Shown in pieces: positions 389-58,552 of a stretch of DNA of 64,000 nucleotides. Location: assembly GCA_016872385.1 (NCBI GenBank), contig VGZV01000006.1, positions 768-64,767 on the forward strand. Direction: 5' to 3'. This DNA is from SAR202 cluster bacterium (GTDB lineage Bacteria > Chloroflexota > Dehalococcoidia > Lucifugimonadales > UBA3495). The notes beneath the pieces were generated by a model, which saw only the letters and a program-made list of their open reading frames with translations, did no database searches and was not told the DNA's origin. Position 1 is the stretch's first letter, and each line of letters starts with the position of its first letter. The translations under genes and the position numbers were made by a program.

Positions 389-409
389 GCCCTGGTAATT
401 AAAGGCGGC

Positions 410-542
410 AGTATGTCAGTTTACCCCAGGCTCGACTCGTCGCACCCCGACAAGTCGGGATGCCCAGATACTTACATGGATTATGTGTTCTCCTGGATTC
501 CGGCTTCCGCCGGAATGACGAACGGCTAATTGATACACTACC
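410..542 (+). mobile_element. MITE-like non-autonomous element, family F, copy 1 (133 bp)
   Basis: Flanked by identical 11-bp TTAAAGGCGGC at 399-409 and 543-553. Imperfect terminal inverted repeats (AGTATGTCAGTTTA / TAATTGATACACTACC). Internal hairpins CCCGACAAGTCGGG and ATTCCGGCTTCCGCCGGAAT. Two further copies in the window. Confidence 0.75.
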
Positions 543-557
543 TTAAAGGCGGCCAAG

Positions 558-586
558 TTGACGGCCACCCTTGGAGTGGGCATAAT
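558..586 (+). promoter_or_regulatory. Sigma-70-like promoter candidate (TTGACG-17 nt-CATAAT) for the NHL-repeat gene
   Basis: Hexamers read directly at 558-563 and 581-586 with a 17-nt spacer, 33 nt upstream of the start at 619. Confidence 0.45.
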
Positions 587-38775: not shown

Positions 38776-38857
38776 AAAACATTCCGTGTCCTATATACGA
38801 CATTAATCAGTTAACACGATTATAGGCTGGCCCCCATCGGCGGTCAAAAACCCCGGT

Positions 38858-38991
38858 AGTGTATCAATTAGCCCTTCGTCGTTCCGGCTTGCGCCGGAAC
38901 CCAGTGGTGCGTATCAGCCATGTCCCTATCTGGGCATCCCGACTTGTCGGGGTGCGACCAGTTGAGTCCTTAAGCAAACTGAGACACTACT
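38858..38991 (-). mobile_element. MITE-like element family F, copy 2 (134 bp, inverted relative to copy 1)
   Basis: Flanked by identical 11-bp AAAACCCCGGT at 38847-38857 and 38992-39002. Same internal hairpins as copy 1. Confidence 0.75.
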
Positions 38992-39006
38992 AAAACCCCG
39001 GTTTGG

Positions 39007-39035
39007 TTGACATCCAAAGGGTGCTGGGCTATATT
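39007..39035 (+). promoter_or_regulatory. Sigma-70-like promoter (TTGACA-17 nt-TATATT) driving the cobalamin riboswitch and cbi operon
   Basis: Near-consensus hexamers at 39007-39012 and 39030-39035, about 60 nt upstream of the riboswitch core. Confidence 0.6.
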
Positions 39036-39094
39036 ACCGTCAGTCAAGGGCTGGACTTGCAGGGCGTTGGCCCGTTGTTAACAATCTAGCGACA

Positions 39095-39275
39095 CCCGCG
39101 GCGCCCAGGGGCTGAATAGGGAAGACGGTGCGAGTCCGTCACGGTTGCGCCACTGTGTGCGGGGAGTTGGCCGAATACAACGCCACTGTCCCCCCCCCAA
39201 TGTTGACGGGGCCAGGATGGGAAGGCATCGGCCCAGCGATGATCCGCAAGTCAGGAGACCTGCCCGGGTTGATGG
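39095..39275 (+). promoter_or_regulatory. Cobalamin (B12) riboswitch
   Basis: Conserved core AATAGGGAAGACGGTGCGAGTCCGTCACGGTTGCGCCACTGT, B12 box GCCACTG...GGGAAGGC and AAGTCAGGAGACCTGCC. Lies upstream of cobalamin biosynthesis genes. Confidence 0.85.
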
Positions 39276-39360
39276 GACCACTCCTCTGCGCCCAACAGAG
39301 TTGGTCTTGTAGCATCCTGGCATAGGCCTCCGGCCCATGACAAGATATCTGCTATGCGCT

Positions 39361-43250: not shown

Positions 43251-43325
43251 GCAGATAAAGCTAACCCGCCCATCCCCGGACAAGCTCCGGATGAGTGGTA
43301 TATGGGCTCAAGTATCAAGAACAGG

Positions 43326-43458
43326 AGTGTATCAGTTTACCCCAGGACTCGACTCGTCGCACCCCGACAAGTCGGGGTGGCCAGATACTTACATGGATAT
43401 GTATTCCACTGGATTCCGGCTTCCGCCGGAATGACTAAAGGCTAATTGATACATTACG
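43326..43458 (+). mobile_element. MITE-like element family F, copy 3
   Basis: Near-identical to copy 1 (AGTGTATCAGTTTACCCC...GGCTAATTGATACATTACG). Flanks are only partly duplicated (CAAGAACA / CAAAAACA). Confidence 0.65.
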
Positions 43459-43527
43459 CAAAAACACTGGTATTAGCTTTGTTCAGGAATCAGCAGGTGT
43501 TTCAAGTCACGTTGCAGGAATAGCCCA

Positions 43528-55595: not shown

Positions 55596-55726
55596 CAGGG
55601 CCTTTTGATTCTCGGCCCGCTCGTCGTGGCGCCCCGACGAGTCGGGGCGCGCCCTGGACAGGCCCATCAGCCGCAGGGCAGCCACATAGGTCTGCCCCTA
55701 CCTTCAGAGACAATCGAAAGACCCTG
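55596..55726 (-). mobile_element. MITE-like element family G, copy 1 (131 bp)
   Basis: Flanked by identical 10-bp GGTTGAGCAG at 55586-55595 and 55727-55736. Terminal inverted repeats CAGGGCCTTTTGATTCTC / GACAATCGAAAGACCCTG. Internal hairpin CGCCCCGACGAGTCGGGGCG. Confidence 0.8.
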
Positions 55727-58421: not shown

Positions 58422-58552
58422 CAGGGTCTTTCTATTGTCCCCGAATGTAGGGGCAGACCTATGTGTCTGCCCTGCGACTGATGGGCCTGTCCAGGGCGCG
58501 CCCCGACGAGTCGGGGCGCTCCTACCAGCGGGCCTAGACTCGAAAGACCCTG
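58422..58552 (+). mobile_element. MITE-like element family G, copy 2 (131 bp, inverted relative to copy 1)
   Basis: Flanked by identical 10-bp CCTCATCCCC at 58412-58421 and 58553-58562. Ends CAGGGTCTTTCTATTGTC / GACTCGAAAGACCCTG. Confidence 0.8.

Follow-up and report, generated by a model that had tools for sequence, protein, structure and literature searches.

Few "safe haven" strategies are known for bacterial transposons; promoter-upstream insertion is one of them and has so far been tied to one transposase superfamily. The docking systems of TnGBS, ISLre2 and ISKra4 (see also Brochet 2009; Guerillot 2013) are the closest to the case described here. Insertions of the Mutator-like TnGBS/ISLre2 elements and of the ISKra4 group lie 15–17 bp upstream of sigma-A -35 boxes, produce 8- or 9-bp repeats and, when the terminal repeats of the element are near-perfect, occur in both orientations (Guerillot et al. 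2014, PMC3942029). The same authors likened TnGBS targeting to that of the yeast element Ty3, and a miniature inverted-repeat transposable element (MITE) derivative is unmentioned in their paper (PMC3942029). We analyzed a stretch of 64,000 nucleotides (the window) from a SAR202 cluster bacterium of the Dehalococcoidia (Chloroflexota), which corresponds to C6:768-64767 of a metagenome-assembled genome (MAG; GCA_016872385.1, 2.70 Mb in 111 contigs, 61% GC) and contains copies 1 to 3 of a MITE that we call family F. Our analysis indicated that family F is very probably a 131–147-bp deletion derivative of an IS1-like insertion sequence (IS) with a single open reading frame (ORF), docked so that 15 nt lie between the element end and a -35 hexamer. 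Family F resembles TnGBS, ISLre2 and ISKra4 in its docking distance (peak at 15 nt), in a duplication of the 8/9-bp class, in the use of both orientations, and in leaving the core promoter and the gene intact. It differs from them in that their transposases are Mutator-like, whereas the cognate transposase of family F is IS1-like (Pfam DDE_Tnp_IS1) and the genome carries no p-MULT gene.

Members of the IS1 family generate duplications of 8–9 bp, and classical IS1 prefers AT-rich DNA; to our knowledge, classical IS1 is not known to dock at promoters. The ends of the IS1 family carry the signature GGnnnTG (PMC6807381). The elements cognate to family F share with the IS1 family the GGnnnTG ends, the 8-bp duplication, and an InsA-type helix-turn-helix (HTH) followed by a DDE_Tnp_IS1 domain. 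In classical IS1, insA and insB are joined by a programmed frameshift, whereas the cognate elements contain one open frame of 283–305 aa and are therefore grouped with the single-ORF IS1 members rather than with classical IS1. They further differ from the IS1 family in their length of 1.5–2.7 kb with passenger ORFs and in scoring under the NCBIfam IS1 cut-off. In the literature, of which our coverage is incomplete, no MITE or IS1-like element linked to -35 docking was found, and the RGTAGTGTATCAGTTTGC-type repeat sequence was not found in a relevant context. We thus found -35 docking published for Mutator-like elements only, and the case of an IS1-like element with its MITE was not found reported. 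A second, unrelated enzyme makes the nature of the landmark, polymerase or sigma factor versus a DNA word, testable.

Family F is a MITE with an 8-bp target-site duplication

A BLASTN search of the genome with copy 1 returned 165 matches, 59 of which are near full length, and an nhmmer profile built from these 59 copies returned 215 non-overlapping matches, including 112 of full length. The family amounts to 15.4 kb, or 0.57% of the genome. The boundary alignment was made with the first 59 copies and then with 111, and all statistics on flanks, duplications, and docking refer to the 111 full copies with flanks (222 flanks). The copies are 130–154 nt long and differ by indels. Copy 1 contains just two short ORFs (38 and 55 aa in the ORF list), and the element is a non-coding MITE, that is, a non-autonomous DNA transposon. 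An Rfam scan of the element returned sub-threshold chance matches only. Its amplification is recent, because pairs within the largest subfamily (approximately 30 copies) reach nearest-neighbour identities of up to 98.5%. The exact family appears to be largely species-specific, since a count of CACTACY-N(5-30)-TTGAC across 40 relatives gave a clear excess over the control in this genome alone.

Alignment of the copies with their flanks revealed a consensus of the form R-GTAG...CTAC-Y, more fully R-GTAGTGTATCAGTTTGC ... GCTAATTGATACACTAC-Y, with terminal inverted repeats of approximately 18 nt (RGTAGTGTATCAGTTTGC / GCTAATTGATACACTACY) in the 111 copies. The left and right repeats co-vary within a single copy, and the end GGTAGTG fits the IS1/IS6 signature GGnnnTG. 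Comparison of the left and right flanks revealed identities of 0.71–0.85 over exactly eight positions, falling to 0.25 and 0.39 just outside them; the positions just outside the eight duplicated bases are a purine on the left and a pyrimidine on the right and therefore belong to the element. The target-site duplication of family F is 8 bp. With no shifting allowed, the two 8-mers are identical at 8/8 positions in 31 copies, at 7/8 in 26, and at 6/8 in 13, and an identity of at least 6/8 is found in 70/111 copies, compared with 1.4% of random flank pairs.

An earlier reading of the window from its letters (the sequence-only reading) had described the element as a non-autonomous MITE that ends in inverted repeats, is flanked by a target-site duplication, and contains two hairpins, all of which is confirmed across the 111 copies; the genome-wide census bears out the family and its flanking duplications, and copies 2 and 3 lie where that reading had placed them. 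Its boundaries of copy 1 required correction. The identical 11-mers at 399-409 and 543-553 (TTAAAGGCGGC), which it had taken as a perfect 11-bp duplication, are present, but a duplication length of 10–11 bp does not stand against the 8 bp found across 111 copies. The GGC tail of the 11-mer consists of the first bases of the element itself (GGCAG, a variant of GGTAG), and the GGC at the start of copy 1 matches the three bases after the right duplication by chance. The 11-mers thus belong to the element consensus, a possibility that had been raised with the first proposal, in the last 3 of their 11 bases only. The element assigned to 410-542 is real, with a left edge that was off by 3 nt and a true span of 407-542.

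Family F lies at a fixed distance upstream of -35 boxes

Flanks were read outward from each element end, so that offset 15 follows the 8-bp duplication plus 7 nt. An exact TTGAC starts at offset 15 in 24 of the 222 flanks, whereas other offsets average 0.2 (Poisson p about 2e-41). It is found at offset 14 in four flanks, at offset 16 in two, and at offsets 18–26 in none, and the reverse word of TTGAC shows no peak at any offset. Matches to at least 5/6 of TTGACA occur at offset 15 in 34/111 elements (0.64 elsewhere), and matches to at least 4/6 in 52/111 (7.0 elsewhere). A TANNNT box lies 16–18 nt past the hexamer in 19/42 docked flanks (45%), compared with a background of 4.2%; examples are TAAAAT, TAGAAT, TATATT, TACAAT, and TATAAT. 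Docking involves the left end of the element 22 times and the right end 18 times, hence both orientations occur. The fixed offset from -35 hexamers, first noticed in the window, therefore holds genome-wide and far above chance. The distance of 4 nt that had been given between the duplication and the hexamer becomes 7 nt once the duplication is set at 8 bp, while the 15 nt from element end to hexamer are unchanged.

The hexamer pair TTGACG-17-CATAAT, which had been read downstream of copy 1 at 558-586, is present. Comparison with the two congeners (G001 and G002) revealed that TTGAC-17-CATAAT is kept before the orthologous NHL-repeat gene in both, and that the DNA upstream of it is unalignable. 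The promoter beside copy 2 precedes a cobalamin riboswitch. Where they could be checked, the hexamers beside copies 1 and 2 appear to be real promoters.

At least three loci hold tandem arrays of family F with identical spacers of exactly 8 bp: C3, C36, and C57, the last being a triple whose promoter side carries GTCAA-N7. Such arrays are expected from renewed insertion into whichever copy of the duplication lies nearer the promoter. The sequence-only reading had considered both a transposase that targets promoter-upstream DNA and the retention of harmless insertions. Retention would imply essentially random insertion, with the pattern produced by the survival of insertions that spare a promoter or modulate it favourably. 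Selection must indeed purge insertions within genes, the elements are intergenic, where -35 boxes are common, and more than half of the copies have no clear -35 box at the offset. However, retention alone cannot give a peak one nucleotide wide, as equally harmless sites a few bases upstream are unused, and it is also at odds with the use of the same 8-mer two or three times in arrays and with the identical offset in unrelated hosts and in autonomous elements (see below); we consider it very improbable. The narrow peak, although insertions slightly further upstream would be equally harmless, and the repeated hits on one 8-mer point to a target site chosen actively rather than by mere retention. 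Of the two explanations, targeting is also supported by the use of both orientations and by the same geometry in autonomous relatives.

Two further arrangements were observed. At C10:42753-43049, two adjacent family F elements with an 8-bp spacer are flanked by a longer duplicated stretch, CGAAGCCGTAATTTG; this pair does not fit two simple 8-bp insertions and may reflect a composite move or a recombination event. A separate MITE family, family G (window 55596-55726 and 58422-58552), has the ends CAGGGTCTTTCGAT and a 10-bp duplication and adjoins -35-like hexamers, which lie 8–9 nt past the duplication in 5/11 genomic copies. Promoter docking in this genome may accordingly not be confined to one element.

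Autonomous elements with the same ends encode an IS1-like transposase

The exact 17-mer GTAGTGTATCAGTTTGC was scanned across 596 Gb of genomes, and 50 stretches were found against about 70 expected by chance, in Verrucomicrobiota, Acidobacteriota, Planctomycetota, Proteobacteria, Bacteroidota, Chloroflexota, and others. Nearly all matches have the preceding G of the repeat, and many have the partner repeat, as 88-bp MITEs in one Pseudomonadales MAG and as 2.1–2.7-kb elements elsewhere; wherever the loci could be checked, the partner repeat and an 8-bp duplication were present. TTGAC lies at offset 15 in 5/51 single 17-mer ends, compared with at most one at any other offset, which is the same per-flank rate as in this genome. 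Because of the preceding G, the partner repeat with its 8-bp duplication, and the shared docking offset, we accept the 50 matches as apparently real. In the Pseudomonadales MAG (OZ244040.1; loci L116, L120, L123, L129, L138, L142, L143, L148, and L157), at least 12 copies of the 88-bp MITE carry an identical 17-nt repeat, and the IS1-like lineage appears to have spawned MITEs independently in this distant phylum.

Full-length elements with the MITE ends measure 1.5–2.7 kb, occur in the same genus and family as well as in several other phyla, and encode a single-ORF, IS1-like DDE transposase of 283–305 aa. L137, L140, and L147 are complete elements with 8/8 duplications; each shares 17–18 of 18 repeat bases with the MITE and contains one ORF of 285–305 aa whose stop codon lies inside the repeat. 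The transposase matches Pfam DDE_Tnp_IS1 (PF03400) with 26.6–28.4 bits, above the gathering cut-off of 24.1, and its N-terminus scores as HTH_38, HTH_23, and InsA HTH. It has at least 8000 relatives, many of which are named "IS1 family transposase" at their source. The autonomous IS1-like elements carry passenger ORFs, such as that for a 425-aa P63C-domain protein in L137 (L137:684-1961).

The IS1-like gene is present in 36/401 of the Chloroflexota genomes sampled and in 28/150 genomes of the same family, both congeners included. A further seven complete Chloroflexota elements are flanked by perfect 8-bp duplications, and their ends are those of the MITE subfamilies GGTAGTGTCTCAG, GGTAGTGGGTCAG, and GGTAGTGCATCAG; subfamily-variant ends were found on L179, L180, L194, L197, L204, L206, and the element of G002. 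Four of the seven face TTGAC or TTGTCG at offset 15, another faces TTGTGC with TATACT beyond it, and the putative promoters at these five loci include TTGACA-17-TATACT and TTGACT-17-TATGCT. The congener G002 carries an intact IS1-like transposase, and the right end of its element, GGTAGTGGGTCAGTTTG, equals one MITE subfamily and precedes TGGTGC-17-TAGAAT. About a dozen autonomous elements were sampled, and the 8-bp duplication is present in 10 complete ones.

An ISKra4 or other p-MULT parent was our initial model, and mobilization of the MITE by a Mutator-like (p-MULT) transposase of the ISKra4, ISLre2, or IS256 kind would match the published geometry, with its 8/9-bp repeats, its distance of 15–17 bp from the -35 box, and insertion in both orientations if the repeats are near-perfect (PMC3942029). 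ISKra4-type genes occur in 23/401 genomes of the class and in 30/150 of the family, and some ISKra4-type copies of Dehalococcoidia show the same 7-nt spacer between duplication and TTGAC, as at L014, where the element end is followed by 8 nt, 7 nt, and TTGACA. The IS256-type elements of related genomes (ends AGTAGAGT.../...ACACTACC) likewise have 8-bp duplications. The model was dropped on comparing the ends: those of ISKra4-type elements read GGGTGTGAC... or GGGTGTCCGTCAG..., compared with GGTAGTGTATCAG... in family F, and only a few bases are common with the MITE repeat among those examined. The IS256-type parent was also dropped, as 27 copies in three related genomes share about 8 terminal bases with family F and show no docking. 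In contrast, the IS1-like elements share 17–18 of 18 repeat bases, the 8-bp duplication, and the docking. No ISKra4, IS256, or ISLre2 transposase was matched in this genome (NF033572, NF033543, and NF033529). A Mutator-like helper is very improbable, and an IS1-like helper remains our preferred reading.

Within this genome, inverted repeat pairs 0.3–5 kb apart proved to be only pairs of separate MITEs. Two candidate ends of an autonomous element were rejected. The start of C102 is an IS5-family IS that has inserted at TTA within a family F MITE; this IS (end CTAGAGAGTGTCGTCAAATAAGGAGG, protein start MTASHRRHDISDRVWE) is present at no fewer than nine contig ends (C16, C94, C41, C39, C38, C11, C21, C61, and C102). 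At the end of C18, an IS3-type element has inserted into a MITE. Elsewhere, a 4.2-kb element of a Chitinophagaceae MAG (JBBJMP010000020.1, L124:509-4687) has the same repeats as family F and a perfect 8-bp duplication, GAATTTGT, and carries genes for an IS1595-type transposase, an IS1-like transposase, and an HTH_3 protein. At this locus and at L117, both from Bacteroidota, TTTG lies at offset 21 in two ends, which hints that docking follows the promoter type of the host.

A proposed mechanism of promoter docking

In the proposed mechanism, an IS1-like transposase supplied in trans would bind both terminal repeats and integrate the element at about -43/-50, with staggered cuts at about -43 and -50 relative to the transcription start. 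The enzyme would pick this position actively, guided either by promoter-bound sigma-A/RNA polymerase or by the DNA of the -35 box. As neither the core promoter nor the gene would be damaged, the insertion would be tolerated, and the high copy number may be explained by this survival of promoter and gene. All DNA upstream of about -50 would be replaced by the element, which could sever activator sites or read-through transcription.

Direct reading of TTGAC(A) by the transposase, for example, through the HTH that binds the repeat and with no role for RNA polymerase or sigma factor, is the less likely but still substantial alternative for the landmark. The MITE repeat itself holds TTGAT, CTGAT, or TTGAC, a (C/T)TGA(T/C) box fixed 9–13 nt inside the repeat, the enriched flank positions are mainly T-T-G, and the N-terminal HTH scores would provide a reader. 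A correctly spaced -10 box at 45% of the docked sites versus 4% argues against it, yet intergenic TTGACA is enriched in promoters anyway. Moreover, TTGAC lies at the offset in 0 of approximately 14 ends in Bacteroidota hosts, a small sample from genomes whose promoters lack TTGACA, and the cut falls between the box in the element and the target hexamer, so that one binding mode cannot cover both. The co-occurring -10 boxes and the Bacteroidota ends speak for tethering to sigma-A or RNA polymerase, the option proposed for TnGBS by analogy with Ty3. Ty3, which reaches Pol III start sites via TFIIIB, is alike in that a bound initiation complex sets the position, which for family F is an inference only; unlike family F, Ty3 is a retroelement of eukaryotes that uses an integrase and is directed to a different polymerase.

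More tentatively, with the chances slightly below even, we propose that an IS1-like lineage spread across many phyla has evolved the same docking as the unrelated Mutator-like elements, with cuts 7 and 15 bp upstream of the -35 box. That two unrelated enzymes arrive at one geometry would suggest a shared host landmark, such as sigma-A region 4 or the alpha C-terminal domains, rather than a DNA word, and the MITE would then flag active sigma-A promoters and possibly insulate them. If this holds, a MITE copied more than 100 times per genome would mark such promoters genome-wide in an uncultured Dehalococcoidia lineage. Docked copies could serve as sequence-only pointers to -35 boxes and hence to sigma-A promoters in uncultured Chloroflexota. 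They also show how intergenic space in a small genome can be taken up by a MITE while genes stay uninterrupted. Because each 145-bp insertion moves the DNA formerly upstream away from its promoter, regulation may have been rewired by the family at dozens of genes, including a B12 riboswitch operon.

Several observations weigh against reading family F as a promoter-docking derivative of an IS1-like element. The IS1-like transposase is not assembled in this 111-contig MAG, so the helper is an assumption drawn from relatives; an unassembled multi-copy IS is usual in a fragmented MAG. The best NCBIfam match of the transposase, transpos_IS1 (NF033558; E 2e-18, 64–67 bits), stays below the curated cut-off of 100, and this score places the transposase in a divergent IS1-like lineage. 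A recognizable -35 box lies at the offset in only 30–47% of family F copies; the undocked copies may face weak, decayed, or other promoters, or non-promoter sites. The promoters other than those at copies 1 and 2 are predictions from sequence alone. A test of gene orientation with raw ORFs of at least 100 aa gave no discrimination in this genome of 61% GC. Finally, the orthologous intergenic regions of G001 and G002 offered no clean empty site, as other repeats lie upstream and the regions are unalignable there.

Features of the window and internal hairpins

The features of the three copies and their surroundings are listed in Table 1.

Table 1. Family F copies in the window, with flanking duplications, promoters, and adjacent features
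Feature	Position in window	Strand	Basis or remark
Left 8-bp duplication TTAAAGGC, copy 1	399..406	.	Register set by 111 copies
Family F MITE copy 1, 136 bp	407..542	+	nhmmer full-length match C6:1175-1308 = window 408-541, plus terminal R and Y
Left terminal inverted repeat GGCAGTATGTCAGTTTAC, degenerate; consensus GGTAGTGTATCAGTTTGC; fits GGnnnTG	407..424	+	Alignment
Hairpin 1 with 5' CGTC tag, CGTC-GCACCCCGAC-AA-GTCGGGATGC	438..463	+	Compensated stems; DNA fold z-score -3.2
Hairpin 2, ATTCCGGC-TTCC-GCCGGAAT, with 3' GACG tag; CGTC-tagged REP-type module	497..520	+	Stem conservation
Right terminal inverted repeat GCTAATTGATACACTACC	525..542	+	Alignment
Right 8-bp duplication TTAAAGGC, copy 1	543..550	.	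Sequence and 111-copy register
7-nt spacer GGCCAAG, duplication to -35 hexamer	551..557	.	7 nt in 24 exact and 34 near-exact cases genome-wide
Promoter TTGACG-17-CATAAT of NHL-repeat gene	558..586	+	Conserved at orthologous site in both congeners
NHL-repeat gene behind copy-1 promoter, GTG start, 306 aa	619..1539	+	ORF list; orthologues with 85-86% DNA identity in G001 and G002
Left 8-bp duplication AAAACCCC, copy 2	38847..38854	.	Sequence, census
Family F MITE copy 2, inverted relative to copy 1	38855..38992	-	nhmmer full-length, E 1.9e-39; 8/8 duplication
Right 8-bp duplication AAAACCCC, copy 2	38993..39000	.	Sequence, census
Promoter TTGACA-17-TATATT, 7 nt past copy-2 duplication, before cobalamin riboswitch	39008..39036	+	Sequence
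Cobalamin riboswitch	39082-39281		Rfam RF00174, 101 bits; ~45 nt after copy-2 promoter
Family F MITE copy 3, 7/8 duplication CAAGAACA / CAAAAACA	43325..43459	+	No -35-like hexamer at docking offset

Family F contains two internal hairpins, both CGTC-tagged and facing each other. In 68/111 copies, the 8-bp stem of hairpin 2 is perfectly paired, either as ATTCCGGC (31 copies) or as the compensated GTTCCGGC (36 copies). Its 4-nt loops are often reverse complements of each other, and its GACG tag is present in 77/111. Hairpin 1 occurs in two fully compensated stem versions, GCACCCCGA versus ACACCGGC/GCACCGGC, and carries its CGTC tag in 62/111 copies. Both hairpins are conserved as structures. CGTC-tagged repetitive extragenic palindromes (REPs) are defined by an 8–9-bp stem starting with AT, a 4–5-nt loop, and an unpaired CGTC tag (PMC3733652), and the hairpins of family F resemble the CGTC-1 REPs, the same family as Neisseria dRS3 (Di Nocera et al. 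2013, PMC3733652), in their 8-bp AT-starting stems, 4-nt loops, CGTC tags, and head-to-head arrangement. They differ in being cargo within a DDE-type MITE that has its own terminal repeats and duplication, as well as occurring alone and in other MITEs. The hairpin 2 module alone was found approximately 60 times in this genome and also in relatives, across genomes of the same bacterial family.

A second MITE family of approximately 58 copies (for example, C5:20555-20657, C12:38182-38284, and C28:22777-22881) has the ends GGGTCTTGCCTCAAAAC / GTTTTGAGGCAACGCCC, and its copies are located within CCTCTCCC...GGGAGAGG hairpins. It holds the same internal CGTC-tagged hairpin pair as family F, so the pair is a cargo common to MITEs with different ends and targets. 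In addition, CACTACCCACAGGGTGTTGAC recurs eight times in G035:C1 (same order) and is probably part of another repeat family.

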